Positions 14,229-59,525 are shown, counted from the first letter of the stretch. The stretch: DNA of 64,000 nucleotides from Candidatus Eiseniibacteriota bacterium (GCA_963707915.1 OY970178.1:701821-765820), one strand, 5' to 3'. Made by a program: numbers and translations. The notes: generated by a model from the letters alone, not told the origin.

Positions 14229-14229
14229 C

Positions 14230-20103: not shown

Positions 20104-20180
<77 letters not shown>

Positions 20181-31500: not shown

Positions 31501-31665
31501 GGGAGCCCCACCCGCGGACCGGTCCCATCCGATCCGCGCGTCCCGCAGCCGCGCACCGGCCAATATGGCGCGGGTGCGCATGCCGGGCAAGCGGGCCCGC
31601 GCGGGCCGGCCCACGCCACGCGGCGGTCGCTTGACGCGGGCCGCGCGGCTCCCGAACATGCCGCC

Positions 31666-32928
31666 ATGAACCCGCTCCCGACGCAGTCCCCGCTCGCGCC
31701 GTCCCGCTTCCCGTTCTACCCCGCCGTCTCGAGCATCCACGACGGCCAGGCGCTCCGCGACCTGGTCGAATCCTACGCGGCGCCGCTGCGGGCCCTCGGG
31801 GGCGAGGCGTGGGCGCCCGCCGCCGGGCCGGCGTCGTCCACCCCGCTGGTCTTCGTCGCCACCGGCGGCACGGAGCGCCTGATCCTCGACGGCGCGGGCT
31901 TCGACGCGCGCGAACCGGCTTTGCTGGTCGCGCACCCGGGGCACAACTCGCTGCCGGCCGCGATGGAGGTGCTCGCGCGCGTCCAGCAGCTCGGCATCCG
32001 CGGGGAGATCGTCTACCTCCGCGGGCCGGAGGACGACGCCGGGCTGCAACGGCTCGCCGCGGCACTCCACGACCGGCAGGTGCGGCGGGCCCTCCGCGCG
32101 AGCCGCATCGGGCTGGTGGGGGAGCCGTCGGACTGGCTGGTCGCGAGCAGTCCTCCGCTCGCGACGGTCACCGAGGTCTGGGGGCCGGCCGTGGTCCCGG
32201 TCCCGCTCGAGTCGATCCTCGCCGACCCCGACGCCGAGGTCGCGGCCCGCGGAGCCGCTCTCGCCGACGATTTCCGTGCGGGCGCGAGCGCGCTGGTGGA
32301 ACCGGCGGAGTCCGACCTGCTGGCCGCCGGAAACGTTTACGAGCTGCTCCGCCGGGTGGTGCAGGCCGGGCGCTTCGACGCGGTCGCGGTGCGGTGCTTC
32401 GACCTCGTGGTGCGCAAGCGGACCACCGGCTGCCTGGCACTGGCCCGCATGAACGAGCAGGGCGTGATCGCCGGCTGCGAGGGCGACCTGATCGCCACCG
32501 TCGCGATGCTCTGGGTCCGCCGGCTGCTCGGCAGCATCTCGTGGATGGCCAACCCGTCACGGATCGACCTGGACGGCCCCCGCCTGAGCCTCGCCCATTG
32601 CACCGTCCCCCGCAGTCCGGGCGGCGCGTATCGCCTGCGCTCGCACTTCGAATCGGGCCTGGGGGTCGGCATCCAGGGCACGCTCCCCGCCGGCCCGGTC
32701 ACGCTGGTGCGCATCGGCGGCGCCCGCATGGAGCGGCTGCTGGCCGTCGACGGGGACCTCGTCCGCAACACCGACCACCCGGACCTGTGCCGCACGCAGG
32801 TCGAGGTCGAGGTCGGCCGCGACGTGTTGCAGGAGTTGCTCGACCGGCCGCTCGGCAACCACGTGGTGGTCGTGCCGGGTCACCACGCCGCCGCCCTCCG
32901 GCGGTGGCACGGGACGATGATCGCCTGA
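31666..32928 (+). CDS. Hypothetical protein, possibly sugar isomerase-like fold
   Basis: 420-aa ORF with good start context; weak resemblance to L-fucose/L-arabinose isomerase-like proteins (FVATGGTE, RCFDLVVRKRTTGCLALARMNEQGVIAGCEGDL); product not secure. Confidence 0.5.
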   Translation: MNPLPTQSPLAPSRFPFYPAVSSIHDGQALRDLVESYAAPLRALGGEAWAPAAGPASSTPLVFVATGGTERLILDGAGFDAREPALLVAHPGHNSLPAAMEVLARVQQLGIRGEIVYLRGPEDDAGLQRLAAALHDRQVRRALRASRIGLVGEPSDWLVASSPPLATVTEVWGPAVVPVPLESILADPDAEVAARGAALADDFRAGASALVEPAESDLLAAGNVYELLRRVVQAGRFDAVAVRCFDLVVRKRTTGCLALARMNEQGVIAGCEGDLIATVAMLWVRRLLGSISWMANPSRIDLDGPRLSLAHCTVPRSPGGAYRLRSHFESGLGVGIQGTLPAGPVTLVRIGGARMERLLAVDGDLVRNTDHPDLCRTQVEVEVGRDVLQELLDRPLGNHVVVVPGHHAAALRRWHGTMIA

Positions 32929-33818: not shown

Positions 33819-34086
33819 CCGGGGCCGTCACGGCGCGGCGGCGTCCTTCGCCGGCCCGGGACCCGCGGCCGGGCGATCGTCCGCGTCCTTTCGCGCGGTG
33901 GGCGACAGGCCGCCGTGCTCATCCACCGGCGGGCGCCGCTGACCCTGCTTCCGCCACGCCGACTCCCGCGCTCGTCACCCGATTGCACCCTTCCCACGGC
34001 ATGCGCGCGCGGTGTACTCTTCCCGCTTCCGCCGCCAGCCCATGGCGGCCATCCATTTTGGCGCCACGCGCCTCGGGAGGTCTTCG

Positions 34087-35595
34087 ATGGCAGCACAGCC
34101 CGCCGTCCCCACGTACGCCCCGCGCGGCTACGAGTTCGCCGACGCGGGCCTGGCCCGCAACTGGATCGGCGGCGAGTGGCGCGATTCGTCCACCGGCGCC
34201 ACCCTGGACGTCGAGAACCCCCGCCACGGCCGCACGATGGGCCGGGTGGTCGTCTCGCCCCCGGCCGACGTGGACGCCGCCGTGCAGGCGGCCCGTGCCG
34301 CCCTGCCGGGCTGGCGCGCGCTGGCGCTGCGCGAGCGCGCCCAGGTGCTCTACCGCCTCAAGGCCATCCTCGAGCGCGACATGGAAGAGCTGTGCTGGCT
34401 GCTCTCCGCCGAGAACGGCAAGGTCTACAGCGAGGCCCTCGGCGACGTCGGCAAGGGCATCGAGTGCATCGAGTTCGCGGCCTCGCTCGCGATGGGCGGC
34501 GCCGGACCGCAGCTCGACGTGAGCCGCGGCGTGAACTGCAAGGTCAGCTACGAGCCGCTCGGCGTGGTCGCCGGCATCACGCCGTTCAACTTCCCGATGA
34601 TGGTGCCGCTCTGGATGATCCCGAATGCGCTGATGGGCGGCAACGCCTTCATCCTGAAGCCCGCGTCCAGCGTCCCCTTCGGCCCGACCCGCATCGCCGC
34701 CGCGTTCGAGGAGGCCGGCCTGCCCCGGGGGATCCTCAACATCGTCAACGGGCGCCGCGAGGTGGTGAGCGCCATCGTCCAGCACCCCGGCATCGCCGCC
34801 GTGCAGTTCGTCGGCTCGACCGCGGTCGCGAAGAGCCTCTACGCGCAGGGCGCGTCCCTCGGCAAGCGCATGATGTGCCTGGGCTCGGCGAAGAACCACG
34901 CCATCGTGGTGCCCGACGCCGATCCCGAGCTCACCGCCTCGACCATGGTGGCCTCGGCGTACGGCTGCGCGGGCCAGCGCTGCATGGCCGCCACGCTCAT
35001 GGTCGCCGTCGGCGACGTGCAGCACATCATCGACGACATGGCCCGGCGCACGCGCCTGCTGAAGCTCGGCCAGGACATGGGCCCGATCATCACCCGCGAG
35101 GACCACGCGCGCATCCTGGCGCACATCGACCGGGCCGAGGCGATGGGCGCCCGGATCCTGGTGGACGGCCGCAAGGCCACCGTCGACGGCTGCGCCGGAG
35201 GCCACTGGATCGGCCCGACGCTCCTCGATGGCGTCACCCCGGACATGCCGTGCGCCCGCGAGGAGATCTTCGGGCCGGTGTTCGGCATCGTGCACACCCG
35301 GACGCTGGACGAGGCCATCGACTTCGCCAACGGCAGCCCTTACGGCAACGGCGGCGCCATCTTCACGCAGAGCGGCAACGTCGCCCGGATCGCGGCCGAG
35401 CGGCTCGACGTCGGCATGTTCGGCGTGAACATCGGCATCCCGGTGCCGCGCGAGCCGTTCGCCTTCGGCGGCTGGAAGGACAGCGGCTTCGCCCACATGG
35501 ACATCACCGGCCTGGACGGCTTCCGCTTCTGGACCCGTACCAAGAAGACCACCGAGAAGTGGGCGCAGCAGGCCGGCGGATCGTGGATGTCGTGA
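34087..35595 (+). CDS. mmsA: CoA-acylating (methyl)malonate-semialdehyde dehydrogenase
   Basis: ALDH superfamily; MMSDH-type features (catalytic Cys in GQRCMA, GSAKNHAIVVPDAD); RBS gggagg. Confidence 0.85.
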   Translation: MAAQPAVPTYAPRGYEFADAGLARNWIGGEWRDSSTGATLDVENPRHGRTMGRVVVSPPADVDAAVQAARAALPGWRALALRERAQVLYRLKAILERDMEELCWLLSAENGKVYSEALGDVGKGIECIEFAASLAMGGAGPQLDVSRGVNCKVSYEPLGVVAGITPFNFPMMVPLWMIPNALMGGNAFILKPASSVPFGPTRIAAAFEEAGLPRGILNIVNGRREVVSAIVQHPGIAAVQFVGSTAVAKSLYAQGASLGKRMMCLGSAKNHAIVVPDADPELTASTMVASAYGCAGQRCMAATLMVAVGDVQHIIDDMARRTRLLKLGQDMGPIITREDHARILAHIDRAEAMGARILVDGRKATVDGCAGGHWIGPTLLDGVTPDMPCAREEIFGPVFGIVHTRTLDEAIDFANGSPYGNGGAIFTQSGNVARIAAERLDVGMFGVNIGIPVPREPFAFGGWKDSGFAHMDITGLDGFRFWTRTKKTTEKWAQQAGGSWMS

Positions 35596-35727
35596 GCCCG
35601 GCCCGCCGGCGGGGCGGGGCGCTTCGGCTGGACCGGTAGGTTCACGCGCGTGGCATCGCCGGCGTCCGCGCGACGGCTTCGATCGGCACGGGCTCGATCG
35701 GTTTACGTCTCACTGGAGGCTTCCGCC

Positions 35728-37116
35728 ATGCGGGTGCTCATCAAGAACGGCACCGTCACGACCTCGGTCGACTCCTGCAAGGCCGACGTATGGATCGACG
35801 ACGGGACCATCGTCGCGGTCGCCGCCCCCTCGGCCCGCGCCCGCTTCGAGGCGGACCGCGAGATCGACGCCACCGGCAAGCTGGTGATGCCGGGCGGCAT
35901 CGACGTCCACACCCACCTCGACATGCCCTTCATGGGGACGGTGTCCAAGGACGACTTCGAGACCGGCACGATCGCCGCGGCCCACGGCGGCACGACCACG
36001 ATCATCGACTTCGCCATCCAGGCGCGCGGCGCGGCGCTGCGGGCCGGCCTCGACGCCTGGCACGCCAAGGCCGAGGGCAAGGCGGTCATCGATTACGGTT
36101 TCCACATGATCATGTCCGACGTCAACCCGGCCACGCTCGACGAGATGCAGGGGCTGGCCGGCGAGGGCATCACCTCCTACAAGCTGTTCACGGCCTACCC
36201 GGGCGCGCTCTACTCGGACGACGGCCAGATCCTCCGCGCGCTGCAGCGGGCCCGGGAGGTCGGGGCGCTGGTGCAGATGCACGCCGAGAACGGCATCGCC
36301 ATCAACGCGCTCATCGAGCAGGCCGTCGCGCGCGGCGAGACCGCGCCCCGCCACCACGCCCTCAGCCGGCCGGAGATCGCCGAGGCCGAGGCCACGCACC
36401 GTTCGCTGTGCCTCGCCGAGATCGCGGGCGCACCCATCTACATCGTGCACCTCACCGCCACGCGCGCGCTCGAGGCGGTGACGCGCTTCCGCGAGCGCGG
36501 GCTGCCGGTGTACGCCGAGACCTGCCCCCAGTACCTCTATTGCTCGCTCGACGACATCTCGCGCGAGGGGTTCGAGGGCGCCAAGTTCGTCTGCAGCCCG
36601 CCGGTCCGGCCGAAGGCCATGCAGGACGACCTCTGGCGCGGCCTCGCGAACGGCAACCTCCAGGTGGTGGCCACCGACCATTGCCCGTTCGACTTCGCCA
36701 CCGACAAGCAGATGGGGCGCGAGGTGTTCACCCGGATCCCCAACGGCATGCCGACCATCGAGACGCGGCTGCACCTGCTGTGGGAGGGCGTGCACACCGG
36801 CCGCATCACCGCGCAGCGCTTCGTCGACGTCGTCTCGACCGCCCCGGCGAAGCTGTTCGGGCTCTATCCCCGCAAGGGCACCATCGCCCCCGGGGCCGAC
36901 GCCGACCTGGTGGTCTGGGACCCCGCGAAGCGCCAGGACCTCTCGGTCGCCCACATGCACATGCGCGTCGACTACTCACCCTACGAGGGCAAGGTGGTGC
37001 AGGGCGCTCCCGACCAGGTCCTGTCCCGCGGCCGTGTCATCGTCGACGGCGGCACGTTCCTCGGCCAGCGCGGCACCGGCCGGTTCCTCAAGCGCGCGGC
37101 GTTTTCGCCCATCTAG
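35728..37116 (+). CDS. Dihydropyrimidinase / D-hydantoinase
   Basis: Cyclic amidohydrolase motifs (PGGIDVHTHLDMPFMG, carbamylated-Lys region TSYKLFTAY, VATDHCPF). Confidence 0.85.
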   Translation: MRVLIKNGTVTTSVDSCKADVWIDDGTIVAVAAPSARARFEADREIDATGKLVMPGGIDVHTHLDMPFMGTVSKDDFETGTIAAAHGGTTTIIDFAIQARGAALRAGLDAWHAKAEGKAVIDYGFHMIMSDVNPATLDEMQGLAGEGITSYKLFTAYPGALYSDDGQILRALQRAREVGALVQMHAENGIAINALIEQAVARGETAPRHHALSRPEIAEAEATHRSLCLAEIAGAPIYIVHLTATRALEAVTRFRERGLPVYAETCPQYLYCSLDDISREGFEGAKFVCSPPVRPKAMQDDLWRGLANGNLQVVATDHCPFDFATDKQMGREVFTRIPNGMPTIETRLHLLWEGVHTGRITAQRFVDVVSTAPAKLFGLYPRKGTIAPGADADLVVWDPAKRQDLSVAHMHMRVDYSPYEGKVVQGAPDQVLSRGRVIVDGGTFLGQRGTGRFLKRAAFSPI

Positions 37117-37125
37117 GAGAGCACG

Positions 37126-37998
37126 ATGAGCCCTGTCGTCCGCTGTGGCCTGATCCAGTGCAGCAACCCGCTGAACGATCCGTCGCGTCCGATCGCCGAG
37201 ATCCAGCGGGCGATGATCGACAAGCACCTGCCGTTCATCGAGGCGGCGGGGGAGAAGAAGGTCCAGATCCTCGGCTTCCAGGAGATCTTCAACGGGCCGT
37301 ACTTCTGCCCGAGCCAGGACCCCCGGTGGTACGAGGCGGCCGAGCCCGTCCCGGGGCCCACCACCGAGCTGATGGCGGGCTACGCACGGCGCTTCGAGAT
37401 GGCGATGGTGGTGCCGGTGTACGAGCAGGCCGCGCGCGGCGTGTTCTTCAACACCGCGGCGGTCCTCGACGCCGATGGCCGCTATCTCGGCAAGTACCGC
37501 AAGCAGCACATCCCGCACGTCGCCGGCTTCTGGGAGAAGTTCTTCTTCACCCCGGGGGACGGCGGCTACCCGGTGTTCGCCACGCGCTACGCCCGGGTCG
37601 GCGTGTACATCTGCTACGACCGCCACTTCCCCGAGGGCGCGCGCTGCCTCGGCCTGAACGGGGCCGAGATCGTCTTCAACCCGAGCGCGACCGTGGCAAG
37701 CGTCTCGCGGCACCTGTGGAAGCTCGAGCAACCCGCGCACGCGGTGGCCAACGGCTACTACGTGGCCGCGTCGAACCGCGTCGGCACCGAGCCGCCGTGG
37801 AACATCGGCCGCTTCTTCGGCAACTCGTACTTCGTGAGCCCCCGTGGCCAGATCCTCGCCGAGGCCAGCGAGGACCAGGACGAACTGCTGGTCGCCGACC
37901 TCGACCTCGCCTTCATCGACGAGGTCCGCAAGTCCTGGCAGTTCTACCGTGACCGTCGGCCCGATGCGTACCACGAGATCGAGCGTCGATTCTCGTAG
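37126..37998 (+). CDS. Nitrilase-superfamily N-carbamoyl amidohydrolase (beta-ureidopropionase / N-carbamoyl-amino-acid hydrolase)
   Basis: CN-hydrolase catalytic triad context (FQE, YRKQH, VYICYDRHFPE); adjacent to dihydropyrimidinase. Confidence 0.75.
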   Translation: MSPVVRCGLIQCSNPLNDPSRPIAEIQRAMIDKHLPFIEAAGEKKVQILGFQEIFNGPYFCPSQDPRWYEAAEPVPGPTTELMAGYARRFEMAMVVPVYEQAARGVFFNTAAVLDADGRYLGKYRKQHIPHVAGFWEKFFFTPGDGGYPVFATRYARVGVYICYDRHFPEGARCLGLNGAEIVFNPSATVASVSRHLWKLEQPAHAVANGYYVAASNRVGTEPPWNIGRFFGNSYFVSPRGQILAEASEDQDELLVADLDLAFIDEVRKSWQFYRDRRPDAYHEIERRFS

Positions 37999-38055
37999 CC
38001 GCGGGCCCGCCGGCGCCCGCGGTGGCGCCGGTCCCCCGGCTTCGGCGACTGGAGA

Positions 38056-39381
38056 GTGGTGATGAACACGCAGGAGATGATCGATCTCTGCAAGCAGCAC
38101 ACGATGTACACCTGGGCGGCCACCGACCAGGTCACGCCACTGCCCGTCGCCCGCGCCCAGGGCGTCTACATCTACACGCCCGAGGGCCGGCGCATCCTCG
38201 ACTTCAACAGCGCAGCTGATGAGCGTGCTCATCGGCCACCACCACCCCCGCGTCATCGCGGCGATGAAGGCCCAGCTCGACGAGCTGATCTACGCGTACC
38301 CGCAGACCGCCACGGCGGTACGCGCGCGGCTGGGCAAGCTGATGGCCGAGGTCATCCCCGGCTTTCACACCTTCTTCTTCACGCTCGGCGGCGCCGAGGC
38401 CAACGAGAACGCCATCCGCGCCGCGCGCCTCTACACCGGGCGCCAGAAGATCCTGAGCCGCTACCGCAGCTACCACGGCGCCACCAACCTCACGATGCAG
38501 CTCACCGGCGACCCGCGCCGCTGGCCGAGCGAGCCCGGCTCCCCGGGCATCGTCCGCGTGATGGACCCGCAGCCCTACCGGTTCTCGTTCGGCAGGACCG
38601 ACGAGGAGAAGACCGCCGCGAACCTCGCCTACCTCGAGGAGATCATCGAGTACGAGGGCCCGCACACCATCGCGGCGATGATCATCGAGACGGTCACCGG
38701 CACCAACGGCGTGCTCCCGCCGCCCGCCGGCTACCTGCAGGGCCTCAAGCGGCTGCTCGAGAAGCACGGCATCCTGCTGATCTGCGACGAGGTGATGTGC
38801 GGCATGGGCCGCACCGGCAAGATGATGGCCTACGAGCACGGCGGCATCGTTCCCGACATCGTGCACGATGGCCAAGGGGCTCACCAGCTCCTACTTCCCG
38901 CTCGGCGCCATGGGCGTCTCCGACGCCATCGCCGCGCACTTCCGCAAGAACGTCTTCTGGGGCGGCCTCACCTACAACTCGCACCCGCTCGGCCTCGCCA
39001 CGGCGGAGGCGGTCATCCAGGTGATGATCGACGAGAAGATGATCGAGAACGCCGCCCGGCTCGAGCGGGTGATGCGGCGGGAGATGGACCGGCTCCAGGC
39101 GAAGCACCGCTCGGTGGCCGAGGGCCGCTGCATCGGCCTGTTCGGGATGATCGACATCCGCAAGAACGCCAAGCGGCGACTCGATCGCGCCGTACAACGG
39201 CAGCCACCCGGCCATGGCGAAGCTCCAGGCGTTCTTCCGCGAGAACGGCCTGTTCACCTTCGTGCGCTGGTCCAGCTTCACCTGCAAGCCGCCGCTGTGC
39301 ATCACCGAGGAGCAGCTGCTCGAGGGCTTCGAGATCATCGATCGCGGCCTCGACATCACCGACGCGGCGTTCGAAGGATAG
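38056..39381 (+). pseudogene. Class-III (omega) aminotransferase, likely beta-alanine aminotransferase; disrupted by three +1 frameshifts
   Basis: Four in-frame segments that concatenate into a roughly 440-aa class-III aminotransferase: frame 1 38056-38211, frame 2 38213-38863, frame 0 38868-39173, frame 1 39175-39381 (stop TAG 39379-39381). Confidence 0.8.
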
Positions 39382-39462
39382 GAGAGAAAGGCGTGACCGC
39401 AACACCCCGGTGCGAGCTCGCGGCAGAGACCGTGACTTCCCCGCTCCACGGCCGCAACCCCC

Positions 39463-40857
39463 ATGGCGATTTCGCACCTGTCGGGAGGTGACGTGCTGAA
39501 AGCCGCAAGACGGACGACCCAGAGGCTCAAGAACCTGACGGACATGGAGGTCGGGTTCACGCTGTCCCAGGCCATCGCGGAGGCCTCGCGCTGCCTGCTG
39601 TGCCACGACGCGCCGTGCTCCAGGGGTTGCCCCGCCGGCACCGACCCGGGCACGTTCATCTGGAAGCTGCGGGTCCGGAACGTCCGCGGGGCGATCCGGA
39701 CGATCCGGCAGAACAACCCGCTGGGCGGGGTCTGCGGCGTCGCCTGCCCGGTCGAGCGCCTGTGCCAGAAGAACTGCAGCGCCACCGGCATCGACCGGCC
39801 GATCGAGATCGGCCGGCTCCAGCGGTTCCTGGTCGAGCAGGGCTGGGGCATGGGGTTCGACCCCATCGCCCAGGCGCCACCGCGGAAGGAGTCCGTGGCC
39901 ATCGTCGGGTCGGGCCCCGCCGGGCTCACCTGCGCCGTGGAACTGGCGCGCGCCGGCATCCAGGCCACGGTCTTCGAGGCCCGACCGCGACCGGGCGGCG
40001 TGCTGCGCTACGGCGTGCCCCGGTTCCGCCTGCACGAGGAGTTCCTCGACCGCGAGCTCGAGGACGTCCGCAAGCTCGGCGTCACCTTCCGCTGCAACAC
40101 CACGATCCAGCGCGACCAGGCGGGACGGCTGCTCGAGAAGGGCTACGCCGCGGTGTTCATCGCCCCGGGGGTGTGGGAGCCCCGGCGCCTGCCCCTGCCG
40201 GGAGCCGGCCTCCGGAACGTGACCACGGCCACCGAGCTGCTCGCGGGGGTCCGCGCCGGCGCCGCGGCCGCGGTCGCCCGGATGGTCCGCAAGAAGAACG
40301 TCGCCATCATCGGCGGCGGCTCCGTCGCCATGGACGTCGCCAGCACCTGCAAGGCCCTCAGCGCCGCCAAGGTGTACTGCATCTGCCTCGAGAGCCTGGC
40401 CGAGATCCCGGCGTCGAAGGCCGATCTCGGCATGGCGCTCGAGAACTTCGTGGTCGTCAAGCCGCAGGCGCAGGTCACGCGGATCCTGGGACTGGCCGGC
40501 AAGGTCACCGGCGTGCAGGGCATCGAGACCGTGTGGAAGCGGCCCGGCTCGTTCGCGCCCGCCAACGCCCGGCCCGTGCCTGGCACCGAGTTCAAGCTGC
40601 GGGTCGACGCGGTGGTCTTCTCGATCGGCTCCGGCCCCGCCGCGGAGGGCCGGGAGCTCGCCGCCGGCCTCAAGACCGCCCGCGACGGGCTGATCCAGAC
40701 GAAGCGGGACGGGGTCTCCACCTCGAAGCCCGGGATCTTCGCCGGCGGCGACATCGTGCGCGGACCGGCGCTCATCGTGAACGCCGTGGCCGACGGCAAG
40801 GCGGCCGCGAAACGCATCCTCGAGTCGCTGGGCGCGGGGGAGAACCACCATGACTAG
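39463..40857 (+). CDS. preT: NAD-dependent dihydropyrimidine dehydrogenase subunit PreT (glutamate synthase small-subunit-like)
   Basis: N-terminal Fe-S cluster Cys motifs (EASRCLLCHDAPCSRGCPAGTD, CGVACPVERLCQKNC) matching E. coli PreT as I recall it; FAD/NAD Rossmann motifs (IVGSGPAGL, IIGGGSVAMD); start ATG 39463 or GTG 39493. Confidence 0.8.
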   Translation: MAISHLSGGDVLKAARRTTQRLKNLTDMEVGFTLSQAIAEASRCLLCHDAPCSRGCPAGTDPGTFIWKLRVRNVRGAIRTIRQNNPLGGVCGVACPVERLCQKNCSATGIDRPIEIGRLQRFLVEQGWGMGFDPIAQAPPRKESVAIVGSGPAGLTCAVELARAGIQATVFEARPRPGGVLRYGVPRFRLHEEFLDRELEDVRKLGVTFRCNTTIQRDQAGRLLEKGYAAVFIAPGVWEPRRLPLPGAGLRNVTTATELLAGVRAGAAAAVARMVRKKNVAIIGGGSVAMDVASTCKALSAAKVYCICLESLAEIPASKADLGMALENFVVVKPQAQVTRILGLAGKVTGVQGIETVWKRPGSFAPANARPVPGTEFKLRVDAVVFSIGSGPAAEGRELAAGLKTARDGLIQTKRDGVSTSKPGIFAGGDIVRGPALIVNAVADGKAAAKRILESLGAGENHHD

Positions 40858-42091
40858 TCACCGGGACCTCAGCGTCGAGATGTGCGGGGTGACGTTCCCC
40901 AACCCGTTCATGCTCTCGTCCTCGCCGGTCTCCAACACCGCCGAGATGATCGGCCGCGCGTTCGATCACGGTTTCGGCGGCACGGTCTACAAGACCATCG
41001 TCGACGACAAGACCAAGATCATCCACCCCTCGCCGCGGATGGCGAGCTACGACGTCGGCACCCGGCGGATCGTCGGCGTGCAGAACGTCGAGCAGACCAC
41101 CGACCGCTCGCTCGCCGACAACCTGGCCGACATCCGCTACCTCAAGAAGAACTGGCCCCGGCACGTGCTGATCGTGAGCATCATGGGCTTCAGCGAGGAC
41201 GAGTGGGTCATGCTCGCCCGGGCCAGCGAGGACGCCGGCGCCGACATGGTGGAGCTCAACTTCTCCTGCCCGCACATGACGGTCGAGGGGTCGGGGATGA
41301 AGGTCGGGCAGGCGATGGAGCTGGTCGAGCGGTTCACCGCCGCCGCGCGGCGCGCCATCCAGGTCCCGATCCTGGCCAAGCTCACCTCCAACGTCACCGA
41401 CATCACCGTGCCCGCGCGGTACGCGAAGAACGGCGGCGCGGACGGCATCACCGCCATCAACACCGTCCGGGCCCTCACCGAGGTCGGGCTCGACGACCTG
41501 GTCCCCAGGCCGAACGTGTTCGGCAGGGGCGCGATGAGCGGCTACTCGGGGCCGGCGATCAAGCCCATCGGACTCAAGTGCGTCACCGAGCTGGCCAAGT
41601 GCGCGGAGCTGGGCCTGCCGATCTCGGGCTGCGGCGGCGTCGAGACCTGGGTCGACGCGGTCGAGTACCTGGCCTGCGGGGCCTCGACCGTCCAGATGAC
41701 CACCGGCGTCATCCACTACGGCCAGCGCATCGTCGAGAGCCTCAACGAGGGGCTGGCCGACTACCTCGACCTGAAGGGACTCGCGAGCGTCGGGCAGCTC
41801 GTCGGCGCCGCCCTGCCCAACGTCCATCCCACCGACGCCTTCGACCTCACGCGCCAGGGCGTGGCCGACTACGACCTCACGCGCTGCGTCGGCTGCGGCC
41901 AGTGCTTCATCGTCTGCCAGGACGCCGGCGGCCAGAACCTGCGATGGGACGACCGGAAGCGGCGGCCGATCCTCAACGACGAGGGCTGCCTGAGCTGCAT
42001 GGTCTGCAGCTTCGTCTGCCCGGTCGACGGCCTGATCACCTACCGCGAGGTCAAGGACAAGAAGGCCGTCGTGCCGCCGGTCTCGGTCTAG
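40850..42091 (+). CDS. preA: NAD-dependent dihydropyrimidine dehydrogenase subunit PreA (DHODH-like TIM barrel plus C-terminal 2x[4Fe-4S] ferredoxin)
   Basis: DHOD-like motifs (GVTFPNPFMLSSSP, ELNFSCPHM, GADGITAINT) and two C-x2-C-x2-C-x3-C ferredoxin motifs; overlaps preT stop by 8 nt. Confidence 0.85.
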   Translation: MTSHRDLSVEMCGVTFPNPFMLSSSPVSNTAEMIGRAFDHGFGGTVYKTIVDDKTKIIHPSPRMASYDVGTRRIVGVQNVEQTTDRSLADNLADIRYLKKNWPRHVLIVSIMGFSEDEWVMLARASEDAGADMVELNFSCPHMTVEGSGMKVGQAMELVERFTAAARRAIQVPILAKLTSNVTDITVPARYAKNGGADGITAINTVRALTEVGLDDLVPRPNVFGRGAMSGYSGPAIKPIGLKCVTELAKCAELGLPISGCGGVETWVDAVEYLACGASTVQMTTGVIHYGQRIVESLNEGLADYLDLKGLASVGQLVGAALPNVHPTDAFDLTRQGVADYDLTRCVGCGQCFIVCQDAGGQNLRWDDRKRRPILNDEGCLSCMVCSFVCPVDGLITYREVKDKKAVVPPVSV

Positions 42092-42102
42092 CGGGAAGAC
42101 GA

Positions 42103-44130
42103 ATGGCTCGCGCCGCGATCGCCGCGATCGCTGCAGCACTGGCGTGGGGACCGGGGGCTGCCGCCCAGCCACCGGCGCCCCGCGCCGATTCCGCGGTCGT
42201 GCAGCTGCCCGAGGTCCTCGTGCGGGGCTCGCGCCCGGTCGTCACGCCGGGCGGGGCGGGGGCGATCACCGCCGCACTCGACTCGATCCCGCTGACGCCC
42301 GACCCGACGATGGAGGAGGTGCTGCGCGCGCTCCCGGGCACGCACCTGCGGACGAACTCCCGCGGCGAGGCCGAGGTCACCGTGCGGGGCTCCGAATCGC
42401 GGCAGGTCGCCGTCCTGCTCGACGGCGTCCCGCTGACCTTCGCCTGGGACGGCAGGGCGGACGTCTCCGTGATCCCGGTGCTCGCCGTCCGTGAAGTGAC
42501 GCTGGTGCGCGGCCTGTCCTCGCTGTCCCACGGACCGAACACCCTGGGCGGCGTCGTGGAGTTCGACACCCGCGACCCCGACCCGGCCGGCGTCCGGCGC
42601 GAGCTGCAACTGCGCAGCGGCGTGGACCAGTTCGGCGCCTACGGCGTGGCCGCTTCCGTGGCGGCGCCGCTGCGCCTGCGCCCGGGGGTCTTCACCGCCC
42701 GTGCCGGTGCGGGGTTCCGTGACTCCCCGGGCCAGGGGCTGCCCGGGACCGTCGCCGAGCCCGTGCCGACCGGCCGCGGCATGCGCCGCAACACGGACGT
42801 CCGGCAGGCCAACGGTTTCCTCTCCCTGCGTCTCGACACCGACGGCGGCGCGTTCCTCTCGCTGCTCGGCACCGGCTACCAGGCGGAGCGCGGCATCGCC
42901 GCCCAGCTCGGAGTCGCCTCCGCCCGGTTCTGGCGCTACCCCAGGCTGGCCCGCGGGATCGGCATCCTCTCCGCGGGCAGCGGGCGGCACCCGATGCCGT
43001 GGGGCGGGCGCGCCGACGTCCAGGTCAGCGCCGGGCTCGACCGGGGCCGGACCGAGATCGACGCCTACTCCTCGCGGCAGTACTCCACCGTGACCTCGCA
43101 GGAGGACGGCGAAGACCGGATCTGGACCCTGCGCTCCGTCGCCTCCCAGTCGCTCGGGCAGCGCGCCAGCCTGGCGCTCGGGTTCTCCCGCGGCGACATC
43201 CTCCACGACGAGGTCCTGGACGGCGTCCTCAACCCCTACGAGCAGCATCTCTGGGACGCCTTCGGCCAGGCGACGATCGGCCTCCCGGGCTTCGGTGCGG
43301 CGCGGCGTTTCGACCTGAGCCTGGGCACGGCGCTGGACGGCGCCAGCACGCCGGTGACGGGGGACAAGCCGTCGCTCGGGGACCTGCAGCGCTGGGGCGG
43401 GCGCTTCGGCCTGGCCGTGCATCTCGACGGCGGGACGACGGCCCACGCCAGCGTGAGCCGCAGGGCGCGCTTCCCGTCACTGCGGGAGCTGTACTCGGGC
43501 GGACTGAAGCGGTTCGAGCCGAACCCGGCGCTCCTGCCCGAGAACCTGCTGGCCGTCGAGACCGGCGTCACCTCGCGTACCGCTCACGGCGACCTGCAGC
43601 TGGTGGGGTTCCACCACCTGCTCTCGGACGCCGTCGTGAAGGTCCGTCTGCCGGGGCCGGCCAAGATGGATCAACGCGTGAACCAGCGGGGCATCCGCAG
43701 CACCGGCGCCGAGGCGCTCGCCTCCCGGGCCTTCGGCCGGCTGGAGCTCGGCGGGGACCTCGTGGTGCAGAGCGTCCGGGTGCTCGACCCGGCGGCCGGG
43801 CTCGCGCGGCCGGAGAACATGCCCGGGGTCATGGCGGGCCTCCGCGCGCGCGCGCCGCTCGCGGCGGGGTTGTCGGTGGCGACGGAGGTGCGTTTCACCG
43901 GGGAGCAGTTCGTGCTCGACCCCGACTCCGGTCTCGAGTCCCGGCTGGCCCCGGCGGGGCGATGGGACCTCGAAGTCTCCCGCGAGTGGCCGCTCGGCGC
44001 CGGGACCGCGTGGTTCGACCGCATGCAGGTCCGCGCGTCCCTCGACAACCTGACCGACGCCGTCCAGTACGATGCCTTCGGCCTTCCGCGACCCGGCCGG
44101 ACCCTCCGAATGGACGTCTGCGTGAACTGA
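42103..44130 (+). CDS. TonB-dependent outer-membrane receptor
   Basis: Signal peptide; plug-domain motifs (AEVTVRGS...VLLDGVPL); long beta-barrel with periodic aromatic residues; substrate unknown. Confidence 0.75.
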   Translation: MARAAIAAIAAALAWGPGAAAQPPAPRADSAVVQLPEVLVRGSRPVVTPGGAGAITAALDSIPLTPDPTMEEVLRALPGTHLRTNSRGEAEVTVRGSESRQVAVLLDGVPLTFAWDGRADVSVIPVLAVREVTLVRGLSSLSHGPNTLGGVVEFDTRDPDPAGVRRELQLRSGVDQFGAYGVAASVAAPLRLRPGVFTARAGAGFRDSPGQGLPGTVAEPVPTGRGMRRNTDVRQANGFLSLRLDTDGGAFLSLLGTGYQAERGIAAQLGVASARFWRYPRLARGIGILSAGSGRHPMPWGGRADVQVSAGLDRGRTEIDAYSSRQYSTVTSQEDGEDRIWTLRSVASQSLGQRASLALGFSRGDILHDEVLDGVLNPYEQHLWDAFGQATIGLPGFGAARRFDLSLGTALDGASTPVTGDKPSLGDLQRWGGRFGLAVHLDGGTTAHASVSRRARFPSLRELYSGGLKRFEPNPALLPENLLAVETGVTSRTAHGDLQLVGFHHLLSDAVVKVRLPGPAKMDQRVNQRGIRSTGAEALASRAFGRLELGGDLVVQSVRVLDPAAGLARPENMPGVMAGLRARAPLAAGLSVATEVRFTGEQFVLDPDSGLESRLAPAGRWDLEVSREWPLGAGTAWFDRMQVRASLDNLTDAVQYDAFGLPRPGRTLRMDVCVN

Positions 44131-44272: not shown

Positions 44273-45310
44273 ATGGCCCACCGATTCCAGACCCCCGCCG
44301 GCTACCGCCCCGCACTGACCGCCCTCGAGACGGAGAAGGCGATCAAGGAGGTCAAGGACTTCTTCCAGGCCGCCCTGGCCCAGGCCCTGAACCTGCGCCG
44401 CGTGACGGCGCCGCTGTTCGTGGAGGCCGGCACCGGCATCAACGACGACCTGAACGGGGTGGAGCGCCCGGTCACGTTCACCGTGAAGGACCTCGGGAAC
44501 ACGACGGTCGAGGTCGTGCAGTCGCTGGCCAAGTGGAAGCGGTTGGCCCTGGCCGACCTGGCGATCCCCGCGGGCGAAGGGATCTACACCGACATGAACG
44601 CCATCCGCCCGGACGAGACGCTGGACAACCTCCACTCCATCTACGTCGACCAGTGGGACTGGGAGCGCGTGGTGGTCGCCGGGGAGCGCAACCTCGACCT
44701 GCTGAAGGCGACGGTGCGGGACATCTACCGCGCCATCCGCCGCGCCGAGGCGTTCGTCGGCGAGCGCCATCCGGTCCTCGGCGCCAGCCTGCCCGAGGAG
44801 ATCACGTTCGTGCACGCCGAGGAGCTCCAGGCGCGCTTCCCGCACCTGTCGCCCTCGGAGCGGGAGACGCAGGTCGTCCGCGAGCACGGGGCGGTCTTCG
44901 TGATCGGGATCGGCGCGCCGCTGGCCGACGGCAAGCCCCACGACGGCCGGGCCCCCGACTACGACGACTGGAGCACCCCCAACGGGCGCGGAAACGGCCT
45001 GAACGGGGACATCCTGCTCTGGTACCCGGTGCTGGACGCGGTCTTCGAGGTCTCCTCGATGGGCATCCGCGTGACCCCGGAGTCGCTGCGCCGGCAGCTC
45101 GCGATGTCCGGGCAGACCGCCCGCGAGGGCCTCTACTTCCACCGCCGCCTGCTCGCCGGCGAGCTGCCGCTCTCGATCGGTGGCGGCATCGGGCAGTCGC
45201 GGCTCTGCATGCTGCTCCTGAAGAAGGCGCACATCGGCGAGATCCAGGCCGGCATCTGGCCGGCCCGGATGCGCGCCGAGCACAAGGAGCGCGGCATCCT
45301 CCTGCTGTGA
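44273..45310 (+). CDS. asnA: Aspartate--ammonia ligase (asparagine synthetase A)
   Basis: Strong collinear similarity to E. coli AsnA from memory (SLAKWKR, GEGLYT, RPDE, SVYVDQWDWERV, RAPDYDDWSTP, GLNGDIL, SSMGIRV, IGGGIGQSRL). Confidence 0.9.
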   Translation: MAHRFQTPAGYRPALTALETEKAIKEVKDFFQAALAQALNLRRVTAPLFVEAGTGINDDLNGVERPVTFTVKDLGNTTVEVVQSLAKWKRLALADLAIPAGEGIYTDMNAIRPDETLDNLHSIYVDQWDWERVVVAGERNLDLLKATVRDIYRAIRRAEAFVGERHPVLGASLPEEITFVHAEELQARFPHLSPSERETQVVREHGAVFVIGIGAPLADGKPHDGRAPDYDDWSTPNGRGNGLNGDILLWYPVLDAVFEVSSMGIRVTPESLRRQLAMSGQTAREGLYFHRRLLAGELPLSIGGGIGQSRLCMLLLKKAHIGEIQAGIWPARMRAEHKERGILLL

Positions 45311-45457
45311 GCCCGCCCCCGCGCCGGGTGGTGGCCGGGGTCGGGGTCCCGGGCCTTCGGCGCGCAGTTGGAAGTCGCCGCCGCTGCGCGTAGGCTCGGC
45401 GCGGCGCGGCGGGAGACCCGCGGCGGTTCGTCGGAACCTGGGAACGGGAGGGACTCG

Positions 45458-45874
45458 ATGAGACTCGGGAGCGTTTGCCTGGTGGCGGCCGCGATCACGG
45501 TGCTGGCGTGCGGCGAGGCGGCCGCGGTCAAGCGAGCGGCCCAGGCCCGGCCGGCCGTCCAGGGCGCATGGGAACTGGTGTGGCCGGAGAAGACCGGCCA
45601 CGAGCGGCAGATCAAGCTCATCACGCCCACGCATTTCACCTGGACCTGCTGGGACACGGAGACCCGCCTCGTGCTGGCGAGCGGCGGCGGCGGCTACACG
45701 CTGGTGGGGGACGGCTACTGCGAGCAGCTGCTCTTCGCCCAGGGTTACGCGGAGCACCTCGGCGGACAGGTCCTGTGCTTCCAGGTGAAGGTCAAGGGCG
45801 ACACGCTGTTCCAGTTGAGCCCCCCCGGCGAGGACGGCATGCGCTCGCGCGAGGTGTGGAAGCGGATCCGCTGA
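45458..45874 (+). CDS. Hypothetical small secreted/lipoprotein-like protein
   Basis: 138 aa; N-terminal hydrophobic signal with Cys (VLACGE); RBS gggaggga; no family recognised. Confidence 0.5.
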   Translation: MRLGSVCLVAAAITVLACGEAAAVKRAAQARPAVQGAWELVWPEKTGHERQIKLITPTHFTWTCWDTETRLVLASGGGGYTLVGDGYCEQLLFAQGYAEHLGGQVLCFQVKVKGDTLFQLSPPGEDGMRSREVWKRIR

Positions 45875-47104: not shown

Positions 47105-48165
47105 TGTGGAGTCTCAGGACGTTGTTCTCACCCGGGGTCGCAACCGACTGAAGGGTGGTAGGCCGTCCAGACTACCGTGTGGACGTCTCTGGTTGTAGTA
47201 GCGAAGCCAGCGGGGCAGGACGCGGGCCCGGACCTCGGAGGTCAGGTAGGCGGCCCCGTAGGCCCACTCGCGGATCAGGGTCTGGATGAAGCGCTCGGCC
47301 TTGCCGTTCGTCCTCGGGCGGTAGGGCCGCGTACGTTTGTGGACCAAGCGCAGCCGTTCCACCTCGTGAGCAAAGCAGCGCGCGAGGTAGCCCGAGCCGT
47401 TGTCACTGAGGATTCGGCGGATGCGGATGCCCAAGGTGCGGAACCAGGCCACAGCACGACGCAGGAACGCTGCCGAGGTCACGCCGGTCTCGTCCCGCAG
47501 CACCTCGGCATAGGCGATCCGGCTGCGGTCGTCGATGGCGACGTGCACGTAGTCCCAGCCCACCCGATGACCCCGTCGCCGGCGGTCTCCGGTGATGCGG
47601 TGACCGTAGAAGCCACTGATCCGCCCCAGTTTCTTGACGTCGAAGTGGAGCAGGTCCCCCGGGCGACGATGCTGGTAGCGGTTCGCGGGCTCCTGCGGCT
47701 CGAGCTTCTGGAGCCGTTCCAGCCCGGCGCGTTTGAGCACCCGCGCCACCGTTGCCCGCGGACGCTTCAGGTCCCGGGCGATCTGCGGCCCGGTCATCCT
47801 CGTGCGCCGCAGCAGCAGGATCATCTCCCGCCATTCGATCGGGGTCGCGTGGGGGTGGCGCCGAGGCCGCGAGCTGCGGTCCTGCAGGCTGGCCGAGTCC
47901 TCGGCCTGGTAGCGGCCCAGCCACTTGTGGGCCGTCCGGCGGCTGATCCCTGCGGCCGTGGCCGCTCGGGTCACGCTCCAGCCCGACTCCCGTACCCGGC
48001 CAACAAGCAGTGCTCGACTGGCAGGGCAGGTCCGTGCTCCACTGTGGAGGTTCATCCGGGGTTCCTCGCTGGTCAGACGTTGACGGCTTCGAACACCACC
48101 AACATCTGTCAGAAGGACCCCGGTTGAACAGTCTCAACCTGTGAACAACCTAGTGAGACTCCACA
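47105..48165 (-). mobile_element. IS481-family insertion sequence, 1061 bp, apparently intact
   Basis: Imperfect terminal inverted repeats beginning TGTGGAGTCTCA (left 47105-47129 vs reverse complement of 48141-48165, about 20/25 identical); single DDE transposase ORF; 6-bp CCTAGG duplication. Confidence 0.8.
47114..48055 (-). CDS. IS481-family DDE transposase (integrase core domain)
   Basis: 313 aa; N-terminal HTH; rve-type catalytic core (HFDVKKLG...DNGSGY...RTNGKAERF). Confidence 0.9.
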   Translation of the reverse strand: MNLHSGARTCPASRALLVGRVRESGWSVTRAATAAGISRRTAHKWLGRYQAEDSASLQDRSSRPRRHPHATPIEWREMILLLRRTRMTGPQIARDLKRPRATVARVLKRAGLERLQKLEPQEPANRYQHRRPGDLLHFDVKKLGRISGFYGHRITGDRRRRGHRVGWDYVHVAIDDRSRIAYAEVLRDETGVTSAAFLRRAVAWFRTLGIRIRRILSDNGSGYLARCFAHEVERLRLVHKRTRPYRPRTNGKAERFIQTLIREWAYGAAYLTSEVRARVLPRWLRYYNQRRPHGSLDGLPPFSRLRPRVRTTS

Positions 48166-48246: not shown

Positions 48247-50052
48247 CTAGGCCGTCTCGCCGGGCCCCGCCACCTTCAGCCACGAGAACCACAGCGGGTG
48301 GTGCCGCTTGTACCAGCGCAGCACCTCGAGCAGCACCTTCTGCTGCTCGGGCGGGATCACCTCGGGCGGGATGCGATCGAAGTGGATGCGCATCTGCTGC
48401 TGGTCCAGGTACTCGATCGCCTCGGAGCACAGCGTCTGGAGCTCGTTGCGGATCCGGCCCGAGTCGGAGATCTTCACCGGCCGGGTGCGGAAGTCCTCGC
48501 CGTAGATGAAGCGGGTGAGCAGCGGGTTGAACACCAGCCGCGACACCCGGCGGTCCTCCATCAGGCGCAGGGTGAACAGCAGGCGCTTGTCGCCACGCGC
48601 CGTCGCCAGCCGCACCCCCACGCGGTAGGTGCCCGGCGCCGTCTCCACGACGCCCGCGGCGCCGGAGTAGGGGTCGTCGCGCATGTAGCCGGAGAGCGCC
48701 ACGACCTCCCAGCGCTTCTCGGGGAAGAAGTCGTCGGCGCCGATGACCGGCTTCTCGAGCGGGATCCCCGAGTCGCGGGCCTCGAGGATCAACCCGCGGT
48801 AGGCGGTCTGCCCGGCCTCGTCCACCGGATGCCCCAGCCGCGCGGCCAGCCGCCCGGCGAAGTCCGGGCCCTCCGGGTCGAGGTGCATGATGTGCTGTTC
48901 GGATTCGTAGGGCAGCTCGAACCTCGACGTGAACACCGCCAGCGAGGCCTCGAGGCCCAGCATCGGCGCCAGGCTCGCCGCCTGCATCGCCTCGGCCGAC
49001 GCCGCGTAGCCGTCGCACAGGAAGAGGTGCGACTGGCCGTCGCCGTCGGTCCACGCGCCGATCCGGTAGGTCGGGGCGTAGGTGCCGGACTCGTTGAAGG
49101 CCTTCATCCCCGAGGGCAGCACCCAGCCGTCCTCGACCACGTGCGCGCCGGCCGCCCGCCACTCGTCCCAGAGCTTCCCGATGCGCACCTCGCGGCTCTT
49201 CCCGCCCAGGGTCCAGACGTGGACGTTCCCGCGCTGCAGCCCGGGATAGGCCGCCTCGATGACCTCCATGACCCGCCCCCGCGGCGTACGGTAGTCGATC
49301 AACAGCGACTGCTCGGCGGCCTTCTCGACGACGACGCGGGGGAGGAACAGGTTCCCGACGTAGCCTTCGTAGGGGCGCCTCATCCGCAGCGGCTGGTCGA
49401 ACAGGTGCAGCACCGTCAGCGGCCCGGTGAGCTCGCCCTTCGCGAAGCGGGAGGTGTTCTCCAGCGTGTCGATGGCGGCGCCCCAGATGGTGATGCCGGC
49501 CGCCTTCACCTCGCGGTAGAAGGTGTCCCAGCCGTACTCCGGGAAGTTCAGCATCCGCGTGACCCGCTGCTCGAGCCAGCGCGCCACCTGCGGCCGGGCG
49601 TAGATGCGGCCGTAGCCGAGCTGGGGGTTGGAGCCCATCTCGGGCGTCTCCCCGGCCTTGGGCATGAGGCCCTCGCCCAGGCACACCATGATCGCGTGGT
49701 TCTCCGGCAGGTGCCGCGAGGCGAACCACAGGCCCTCGCTCATGGCGTAGGCGGAGATCGCGTCGGCGTCCTTCTTGACCTGGTTGAGCCCGGTCTTGTC
49801 CTTGCCCTGGCCCTCGCCGAAGCGGCCGAAGAGCTGGGTGCCCAGCGCGGTGACCGCCACCGTCATGGCCATCAGCCGCTCCATGCGGCCGTCCAGGAAG
49901 GAGATCTCGCCGGTGAACTCGGCCACGGGCTCGCCCCGGATCCACTCCACCGAGACGTCCTCGAGCCACAGGTGCAATCGACCCAGGATGGGACGGGTGT
50001 CGAAGGCCCACTGCGCGATCCGGTCCCGCTTGAGTCGATCCGCCTCGCTCAT
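48247..50052 (-). CDS. Large GlpX-like (class II fructose-1,6-bisphosphatase superfamily-like) protein with about 200-aa C-terminal extension; function unknown
   Basis: 641-aa ORF; preferred start ATG 50052 (601 aa); segments paralleling GlpX motifs as I recall them (IMVCLGEGLMPKAGETPEMG; WGAAIDTLENT; CDGYAASAEAMQAASLAPMLG). Confidence 0.45.
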   Translation of the reverse strand: MSEADRLKRDRIAQWAFDTRPILGRLHLWLEDVSVEWIRGEPVAEFTGEISFLDGRMERLMAMTVAVTALGTQLFGRFGEGQGKDKTGLNQVKKDADAISAYAMSEGLWFASRHLPENHAIMVCLGEGLMPKAGETPEMGSNPQLGYGRIYARPQVARWLEQRVTRMLNFPEYGWDTFYREVKAAGITIWGAAIDTLENTSRFAKGELTGPLTVLHLFDQPLRMRRPYEGYVGNLFLPRVVVEKAAEQSLLIDYRTPRGRVMEVIEAAYPGLQRGNVHVWTLGGKSREVRIGKLWDEWRAAGAHVVEDGWVLPSGMKAFNESGTYAPTYRIGAWTDGDGQSHLFLCDGYAASAEAMQAASLAPMLGLEASLAVFTSRFELPYESEQHIMHLDPEGPDFAGRLAARLGHPVDEAGQTAYRGLILEARDSGIPLEKPVIGADDFFPEKRWEVVALSGYMRDDPYSGAAGVVETAPGTYRVGVRLATARGDKRLLFTLRLMEDRRVSRLVFNPLLTRFIYGEDFRTRPVKISDSGRIRNELQTLCSEAIEYLDQQQMRIHFDRIPPEVIPPEQQKVLLEVLRWYKRHHPLWFSWLKVAGPGETA

Positions 50053-50278
50053 GACGCGTCCCTTTCCGGCGGGTTCGCCCCGACCGCTTGCATCCCGTCC
50101 CTGGCCCCGTCCACGCCGTCCCGGGAGCCGCCCGCGCGGGCCCGCTCCCGGTGGGGCACCCACCGAAGCCACCGCAGGCTAGCAGGACCGCGAAAGCCGG
50201 GGCAAGGACGACCGGATCGCGGACATCGCGCGTGGACGCGGCCCGCGCGCCCCTGCAGGACGAGAGGCGAGACGGAAC

Positions 50279-57629: not shown

Positions 57630-57789
57630 CTCGGGCCGCCCCGTCCCCCGGCGAATCGCGGCGGGCGCCCGGGGCGACCCGACGCGGCGGCGTTCGACCG
57701 CCGTTCCTGCTACGCTCGGGGGAAGACGAGGCCGAGCGGTGCGGCGGCCGGCCGGCCGAGCCCGAGTCCAACCCCGGAGGCGATACCCG

Positions 57790-59010: not shown

Positions 59011-59021
59011 GAGGGACAAGA

Positions 59022-59525
59022 ATGGACTTCCAGGACCTGATCCGCGCCCGCTACAGCTGCCGTGCCTACCTCGACACGCCGGTCGAGGAGGAGAAGCTCG
59101 CGGCCGTGCTCGAGGCGGCTCGCCTCGCGCCGACGGCGGCCAACCGCCAGGCCTTCCGCGTGCACGTGCTCACGACCGCCGGCCGCCACGACGAGTTGCG
59201 CCGGCTCTACGCGCGCGACTGGCTCGCGCAGGCGCCGCTGGTGATCGGCGTCGCCGGGGAGCCCGCCCGCGGCTGGGTGCGCCGCGACGGGCGCAACTAC
59301 GTGGACGTGGACTGCGCGATCGTCATGGACCACCTCGTGCTGCAGGCCGCCGACCTCGGCCTCGGCACCTGCTGGATCGCGGCGTTCGACCCGCCCGCTG
59401 CGCGTGAGCTTCTCCAGCTGCCGCCCGGGTGGGAGCCGATCGCGTTCACGCCGCTGGGGTATCCCGCCGACACCTGCCCGCCCAGGAAACGCCGGCCGCT
59501 CGAGGAGATCGTGACCCGGCGGTAG
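59022..59525 (+). CDS. Nitroreductase-family protein
   Basis: 167 aa; nitroreductase fold motifs (RYSCRAY, LAPTAANRQAFRVHVL, DLGLGTCWI). Confidence 0.8.
   Translation: MDFQDLIRARYSCRAYLDTPVEEEKLAAVLEAARLAPTAANRQAFRVHVLTTAGRHDELRRLYARDWLAQAPLVIGVAGEPARGWVRRDGRNYVDVDCAIVMDHLVLQAADLGLGTCWIAAFDPPAARELLQLPPGWEPIAFTPLGYPADTCPPRKRRPLEEIVTRR

Follow-up and report, generated by a model that had tools for sequence, protein, structure and literature searches.

Gene content of the locus

We analyzed a 64,000-nucleotide (nt) stretch of DNA from Candidatus Eiseniibacteriota bacterium (OY970178.1:701821-765820 of GCA_963707915.1; hereafter the window, with positions counted from its first letter), in which a candidate gene cluster for reductive pyrimidine degradation (Pyd) occupies positions 34087-44130. 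The high G+C content of the window (70-75%) gives rise to long spurious open reading frames (ORFs) throughout, and genes were called by the G+C content of codon positions (GC3) in combination with a seven-state hidden Markov model (HMM) of the reading frame. The predicted proteins were compared with Pfam, with NCBIfam under its curated cut-offs and with the solved structures of the PDB; RNA families were searched with Rfam.

The GC3 tracks, the frame HMM and the translations delineate seven coding segments on the plus strand (Table 1). Six encode enzymes, namely an mmsA-type semialdehyde dehydrogenase, a dihydropyrimidinase, a nitrilase-type amidohydrolase, a class-III aminotransferase and the PreT and PreA subunits of a dihydropyrimidine dehydrogenase, and the seventh encodes a TonB-dependent receptor. 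The original prediction had placed six same-strand enzyme genes followed by a receptor in this interval, and both the positions and the families were recovered by GC3, translation, Pfam and NCBIfam. A Shine-Dalgarno sequence GGGAGG is located 7 nt ahead of the mmsA start codon ATG. The preT gene has a second possible start, an ATG at 39463, and its reading frame overlaps that of preA by 8 nt, by which PreT is predicted to be translationally coupled to PreA. The receptor gene starts 11 nt past the preA stop codon.

Table 1. Coordinates of the cluster genes and of other features in the window
Feature	Position	Strand	Length and family matches
mmsA-type CoA-acylating (methyl)malonate-semialdehyde dehydrogenase	34087-35595	+	502 amino acids (aa); Pfam Aldedh, TIGR01722
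Dihydropyrimidinase / D-hydantoinase (PydB)	35728-37116	+	462 aa; TIGR02033, Amidohydro_1
Nitrilase-superfamily CN_hydrolase, predicted N-carbamoyl-beta-alanine amidohydrolase (PydC function)	37126-37998	+	290 aa; Pfam CN_hydrolase
Class-III (omega) aminotransferase, PydD-like, frameshifted	38062-39381	+	438 aa after repair; NF004718/PRK06062
PreT / PydA1, Fe-S and FAD/NAD(P)H-binding subunit	39493-40857	+	454 aa; Fer4_20 and Pyr_redox_2
PreA / PydA2, FMN/pyrimidine-binding subunit with C-terminal 2x[4Fe-4S] domain	40850-42091	+	413 aa; NF006183
TonB-dependent outer-membrane receptor	42103-44130	+	675 aa; Plug and TonB_dep_Rec_b-barrel
tRNA gene	10401-10473	+	
tRNA gene	14037-14110	+	
NikR	14227-14643		
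CbiM	14701-15663		
CbiQ	15668-16261		
cbiO/ecfA-type ABC ATPase, frameshifted	16282-17030	+	248 aa after repair
PCMT gene	19385-20070		
tRNA gene	20104-20177	+	
ORF with strong coding G+C signal	31660-32928	+	no Pfam match
G+C-rich hairpin with T-run	34031-34059	+	
AsnA aspartate-ammonia ligase	44273-45310	+	TIGR00669
ORF with strong coding G+C signal	45368-45874	+	no Pfam match
IS481-family transposase	47114-48055	-	LZ_Tnp_IS481, rve, rve_3
ORF with strong coding G+C signal	48247-50172	-	no Pfam match
ORF with strong coding G+C signal	53575-55983	+	no Pfam match
YgeY-family "selenium metabolism-linked" M20 hydrolase	57784-59001		TIGR03526
Nitroreductase-family ORF	59004-59513		
PRK09237-like amidohydrolase	59611-60816	-	

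Identification of the enzymes and the proposed pathway

The first gene product belongs to the Pfam family Aldedh (1.4e-125) and passes the methylmalonate-semialdehyde dehydrogenase model TIGR01722 with 496.3 bits (cut-off 448.5); an identical protein is on record in a public collection, from a 3.62 Mb NCBI/ENA contig. The dihydropyrimidinase likewise passes its model (TIGR02033, 594.5 bits versus 393.25), contains Amidohydro_1 and shows the motifs DVHTH, SYKLF, HAENG and ATDHCP in translation. In agreement with this, the name dihydropyrimidinase has been given by JGI to a cluster mate.

The third protein is a member of the CN_hydrolase family (1.7e-61), and its closest solved structure is the Drosophila beta-alanine synthase 2vhh (4.2e-55), aligned from residue 4 to 285 with conservation of the E/K/C catalytic motifs QE, RKxHIP and ICYxRH. 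The E/K/C and ICYxRH motifs are common to the eukaryotic beta-ureidopropionases, both 2vhh and human 6ftq, which differ from the 290-aa protein in carrying an N-terminal extension of about 70 residues. None of the NCBIfam models reaches its cut-off for this protein; the AguB model TIGR03381 gives 233.4 bits, below 410.25. The assignment to beta-ureidopropionase, drawn from the conserved gene context and from the JGI name beta-ureidopropionase of cluster mates, is the least certain one in the set.

PreT contains the Fer4_20 domain ("dihydropyrimidine dehydrogenase domain II", 1.2e-28) and Pyr_redox_2, and its alignment with pig dihydropyrimidine dehydrogenase (DPD) covers residues 71-502 of the latter (4e-46). 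PreA contains DHO_dh and Fer4_21 and passes the PreA equivalog model NF006183 with 480.6 bits (cut-off 335). Its alignment with pig DPD includes residues 532-845 and the C-terminal Fe-S domain (914-1001), with the catalytic-Cys motif SCPH kept. The E-value against pig DPD (1.5e-63) is about 30 orders of magnitude better than those against dihydroorotate dehydrogenases (around 1e-31).

Based on family membership and on established knowledge of the pathway, the following chemistry may be proposed. PreT/PreA would reduce uracil or thymine to the 5,6-dihydro base, and dihydropyrimidinase would open the ring of dihydrouracil or dihydrothymine to yield N-carbamoyl-beta-alanine or N-carbamoyl-beta-aminoisobutyrate, from which the nitrilase-type amidohydrolase would release NH3, CO2 and beta-alanine or beta-aminoisobutyrate. 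The class-III aminotransferase is expected to remove the second nitrogen, forming malonate or methylmalonate semialdehyde, and the MmsA-type dehydrogenase would convert the semialdehyde to acetyl- or propionyl-CoA. We consider it likely that the locus is such an extended Pyd gene string in an uncultured Gram-negative bacterium of 72% G+C, that the frameshifts found in its aminotransferase gene are errors, and that the receptor is a lineage-specific neighbor of the enzyme genes.

Conservation of the enzyme set

When species-representative genomes were scanned for PreA, 33 loci were obtained, with which the window proteins were then compared by tblastn. The closest PreA relative in the GTDB representative set is 77% identical. 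In 30 of the 33 loci preT is the gene immediately ahead of preA; in the other three the contig ends on that side. An ortholog of the CN_hydrolase (54-69% identical) is present in 13 PreA loci, all of which also contain a class-III aminotransferase; dihydropyrimidinase is found in 11 and an MmsA-type dehydrogenase in four of these 13. One further locus, found via the aminotransferase (L001), combines dihydropyrimidinase, CN_hydrolase (79%), Aldedh (58%) and aminotransferase (85%) with an adjoining preT gene, and on a contig of a relative with at least 90% identity the order mmsA, dihydropyrimidinase, CN_hydrolase, aminotransferase is the same as in the window.

The recurrence of the gene set across these loci suggests that the enzymes form a conserved functional module. 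The co-occurrence of the genes beside PreT/PreA in many unrelated metagenome-assembled genomes (MAGs) is beyond chance. Across the related loci, split PreT/PreA is usually accompanied by the nitrilase-type beta-ureidopropionase, in many uncultured bacteria as in some archaeal-titled MAGs. Four loci titled as MAGs of uncultured archaeon or Thermoplasmatota (L003, L019, L021 and L022) contain PreT/PreA together with a CN_hydrolase (62-63%) and a class-III aminotransferase, and in L003 and L019 dihydropyrimidinase is present as well. The Pyd module seems to be shared by bacteria and archaea.

Frameshifts in the aminotransferase gene

The GC3 tracks, the HMM and three-frame translation reveal that the aminotransferase frame jumps by +1 three times, each time with the upstream frame not ended by a stop codon. 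The extra bases are AGC[G]CAG at 38212, GTG[C]ACG at 38864 and AAG[C]GGC at 39174. To an unaided reader the apparent aminotransferase gene is the open frame 38219-39499, which is partly out of frame. The six families fit the extended pathway as the original prediction had it, whereas its description of the set as complete does not hold for the sequence as deposited, in which the intact beta-alanine aminotransferase gene expected of an extended Pyd cluster is missing.

Removal of the three insertions produces a 438-aa protein that passes NF004718/PRK06062 (485.5 bits versus 472), shares 74-85% full-length identity with thousands of unbroken homologs (85% over 100% of the length with the intact protein P0011), and is aligned gap-free at each of the junctions (DFNSQLMSV, PDIVTMAKGL and KNAKGDSIAP), with the lysine motif for pyridoxal phosphate intact. 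Among 208 columns that are invariant in nine homologs, the repaired protein departs at one (L to M); in the same test by leave-one-out, the nine intact homologs depart at 1-17 columns each, so that the repaired protein shows an equal or smaller number of changes. Three independent indels accompanied by almost no substitutions are unlike neutral decay. We favor an artefact: the frameshifts are most likely uncorrected insertion errors in the deposited contig.

Some independent data bear on this assignment. A Logan contig of 5.7 kb (run ERR12037368) encodes an identical PreA, with PreT, PreA, the receptor and AsnA spaced as in the window. As known from its called ORFs, it also contains a 196-codon unbroken ORF that ends exactly at the aminotransferase stop codon. 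In the window, the frame of this ORF is closed at 39148 and the preceding frame at 38823. The unbroken ORF extends across two of the three sites, and the Logan contig must therefore lack the second and third insertions.

A second gene of the window, encoding a cbiO/ecfA-type ABC ATPase in an operon with NikR, CbiM and CbiQ, has two +1 insertions at about 16651 and 16949, the repair of which restores a normal 248-aa CbiO. All five non-boundary frame changes in the 64 kb are +1 insertions, and no gene other than the aminotransferase (three) and cbiO (two) is affected. A further frameshift had been suspected in the PCMT gene, which was found to be intact.

The alternative is a genuine, recent pseudogene of this strain, in which case the pathway would end at beta-alanine or beta-aminoisobutyrate with one nitrogen freed as NH3, and MmsA would have no supplier within the cluster unless another transaminase substitutes. 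The frameshifts themselves are unambiguous, and the public record for the 3.62 Mb NCBI/ENA contig, which also holds the neighbor proteins, includes the out-of-frame product of 38062-39024 (320 aa); the frameshifts therefore belong to the deposited genome and were not introduced into the window. They are not extensions of homopolymers, as would be typical of certain sequencing errors, and exact look-ups of the full repaired aminotransferase and of three C-terminal fragments returned no record, although cut products may be unindexed or differ by one residue. The IS481-family transposase gene 3 kb downstream indicates that the region is open to disruption.

Against a pseudogene stands the single change at the family-invariant positions, as decay that yields three indels should bring many substitutions. 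All five indels of the window are insertions, whereas bacterial gene decay is usually deletion-biased; the collinear contig with the identical PreA carries an unbroken ORF over two of the sites; and a like lesion has hit the unrelated cbiO gene twice, which looks like a locally poor consensus. Taken together, a true pseudogene seems unlikely to us. An exact look-up of the CN_hydrolase for independent contigs found no record. The name "contig_2926" of a 4.16 Mb contig with a receptor homolog, from a different ENA assembly that represents comparable data only, gives only a hint of long-read metagenome assembly.

If the frameshifts are artefacts, as we prefer to think, the pathway would be complete in the organism. 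Clustered single-base insertions can make intact genes look like pseudogenes, and calls of complete or incomplete pathways on this genome need checking at the level of reads.

The TonB-dependent receptor

The last gene of the string encodes a protein with the Pfam domains Plug (residues 62-151) and TonB_dep_Rec_b-barrel (residues 232-650) and with a hydrophobic N-terminus that ends in ...GAAAQ and has the features of a signal peptide. By this architecture it is a bona fide TonB-dependent receptor. Its NCBIfam matches are limited to the plug, with about 30-60 bits versus cut-offs of 223-1100, and resemble BtuB, heme and siderophore receptors; none of the substrate-specific NCBIfam models for these classes reaches its cut-off. 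The PDB matches are confined to residues ~24-190, and the named relatives of the receptor come from Gemmatimonadota, Longimicrobiales and Eisenbacteria.

The original prediction saw in this gene a function in the uptake of a nucleobase-related substrate. The short distance to preA on the same strand and the absence of a terminator-like site between the two genes make their co-transcription plausible, and one other locus could be interpreted in favor of the uptake function. It is represented by L039/L041 (L041 10001-13057; ENA ERZ1760152, FX_forest_Scaff0796341), in which a 63%-identical receptor is followed immediately downstream, in convergent orientation, by a 69%-identical CN_hydrolase ortholog. 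A dihydropyrimidinase-like gene (48%) is located 7 kb upstream and a methylmalonate-semialdehyde dehydrogenase-like gene (39%) 4 kb past the CN_hydrolase, each at a distance of less than 10 kb. Apart from the window, no other locus was found with the receptor close to genes of the Pyd type, and the convergent orientation and the unrelated genes interspersed among them argue against a functional unit.

The adjacency is not conserved elsewhere. In the 33 PreA loci no receptor homolog was detected, even at E<=1. A profile-guided scan of metagenomes provided 80 further loci with receptor relatives, 47 of them with at least 3 kb of upstream sequence, and no Pyd homolog was detected in any of these at E<=1e-20. 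Six contexts of receptor orthologs (61-68% identity) were compared, and five of them are unrelated to pyrimidines and to one another. These three results indicate that the receptor-Pyd adjacency is lineage-specific, and the proposed role in nucleobase-related uptake was not supported. Free nucleobases are small enough for porins, and we know of no nucleobase-specific TonB-dependent receptor.

We regard it as improbable that the receptor is a functional part of the system that brings a pyrimidine-related or nucleic-acid-derived substrate over the outer membrane for the Pyd enzymes. The stricter proposal, in which the receptor is co-transcribed with the Pyd genes as a dedicated importer of a pyrimidine- or nucleic-acid-derived substrate, is given still less credit, and L041 is the one comparative hint in its favor; if it is true, we know of no earlier case of a TonB-dependent receptor linked to the catabolism of nucleobases or nucleosides.

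Other readings of the enzymes

Several observations weigh against the Pyd assignment itself. The CN_hydrolase scores nearly equally with plant N-carbamoylputrescine amidase (4.2e-54) and with beta-ureidopropionase. For PreT, no NCBIfam model is reached at its cut-off, the best curated matches are the GltD and NfnB families, and solved structures of the NfnB/GltD type score better than pig DPD. No pyrimidine permease or regulator was found flanking the cluster, and no sigma-70-type promoter was detected in the cluster region; the operon structure suggested by the gene spacing is accompanied by neither a detected promoter nor a terminator.

The two middle genes could in principle form a hydantoinase-carbamoylase pair acting on 5-substituted hydantoins and D-carbamoyl amino acids, an option that had been raised together with the pyrimidine reading. 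Indeed, TIGR02033 spans both names, D-hydantoinase and dihydropyrimidinase, and D-carbamoylases are likewise nitrilase-superfamily enzymes. However, D-carbamoylases match the CN_hydrolase about 30 orders of magnitude worse (about 1e-25) than do beta-ureidopropionase and N-carbamoylputrescine amidase (about 1e-55), and the pair is set among PreT/PreA, a beta-alanine-type aminotransferase and a methylmalonate-semialdehyde dehydrogenase, a combination that recurs in many genomes. The hydantoin alternative emerges weaker from this comparison and is very improbable.

A pair of glutamate-synthase-like, NfnB-like or dihydroorotate-dehydrogenase-like paralogs acting on another substrate, to which the above matches of PreT could point, is hardly credible, as PreA scores above the cut-off of the equivalog model and aligns with the two halves of the C-terminal portion of mammalian DPD, PreT has the DPD-type Fer4_20 domain, and the pair is conserved beside the dihydropyrimidinase and beta-ureidopropionase genes. 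The profile search named in the original prediction as able to overturn PreT/PreA as a dihydropyrimidine dehydrogenase did not do so.

Comparison with known Pyd systems

According to the Figure 1C legend of PMC7332683 and the refs 4 and 5 given there, Pyd clusters of bacteria can consist of a split PydA1/PydA2, PydB, PydC, a beta-alanine aminotransferase PydD and a malonic semialdehyde dehydrogenase. The same paper cites the uracil-to-acetyl-CoA pathway of Bacillus megaterium and summarizes the PydD/PydE pathway of Lysinibacillus/Bacillus smithii. The cluster in the window resembles the extended clusters of B. megaterium and Lysinibacillus/B. smithii in its six functions, in the split dehydrogenase, in the location of all genes on one strand and in the predicted formation of acetyl-/propionyl-CoA and two NH3. 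It differs in the uncultured high-G+C Gram-negative host, the appended receptor gene, the first position of mmsA and the frameshifted aminotransferase. The likeness to the described PydC and PydD is one of function, as summarized in that source.

In PMC7332683, E. coli PreAT is noted to depend on NADH and not to form part of a Pyd pathway, and NADPH to be the cofactor of those PydA enzymes that were studied from Pyd pathways; E. coli is described there as having no PydB and PydC and as not using PreTA for pyrimidine catabolism. In view of these two precedents, the cofactor of PreT/PreA, given as NAD in the original prediction, may be either NADH or NADPH. Like the E. coli pair, the one in the window has a PreA that passes the equivalog model and is encoded by two ORFs with overlapping stop and start codons; it differs in being embedded in a full Pyd cluster.

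The closest solved structure to the repaired aminotransferase, a PRK06062-subfamily protein, is the taurine:2-oxoglutarate aminotransferase Toa (6jix, 1.1e-96), and close homologs bear the JGI name taurine--2-oxoglutarate transaminase. The gene context here and in L001 differs from that of Toa, being pyrimidine and not taurine catabolism.

The cluster is of an already described kind, found here in a new host, and as such is an ordinary finding. It extends the list of Pyd clusters by one from an uncultured lineage of high G+C content, and its importance outside annotation is small.

Surroundings of the cluster and other features of the window

Upstream of the cluster lie a CorA gene on the minus strand, an unassigned ORF and a HAD hydrolase gene. 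A G+C-rich hairpin followed by a T-run ends 28 nt before the mmsA start and is the sole terminator-like site on the plus strand within 12 kb. It was set aside, the folding of the leader being no stronger than that of shuffled sequences (z = -0.47) and the terminator counts not above those of shuffles. Rfam detected no riboswitch in the 64-kb window, and so none ahead of the cluster or the receptor. The three tRNA genes are the only Rfam families in the window.

Downstream of the receptor, an AsnA gene (TIGR00669, 399.5 bits versus 292.8) begins after 142 nt and is followed by two unassigned ORFs and the IS481-family transposase gene. The location of the ammonia-consuming AsnA next to an ammonia-releasing pathway may be a coincidence.

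The G+C content is 0.69-0.71 in the cluster region and 0.73-0.76 in the flanks. The closest relatives of the Pyd proteins, with up to 85% identity, are labeled Deltaproteobacteria or Myxococcales. The closest named relatives of the Der GTPase of the window belong to Eisenbacteria (67-70%), and the receptor points to Eisenbacteria and Gemmatimonadota. Horizontal acquisition of the cluster is possible.

Four sizeable ORFs of the window have a strong coding G+C signal and no Pfam match; the one nearest to the cluster on its upstream side (31660-32928) gives a faint sulfoquinovose-isomerase-like match of 43 bits, compared with a cut-off of 700. Finally, a hydrolase gene of the YgeY family (TIGR03526, 425.7 bits versus 321.5) is followed by the nitroreductase-family ORF and a divergent gene for a PRK09237-like amidohydrolase. 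The E. coli gene ygeY belongs to the purine-catabolism-linked region ygeW-ygfK.

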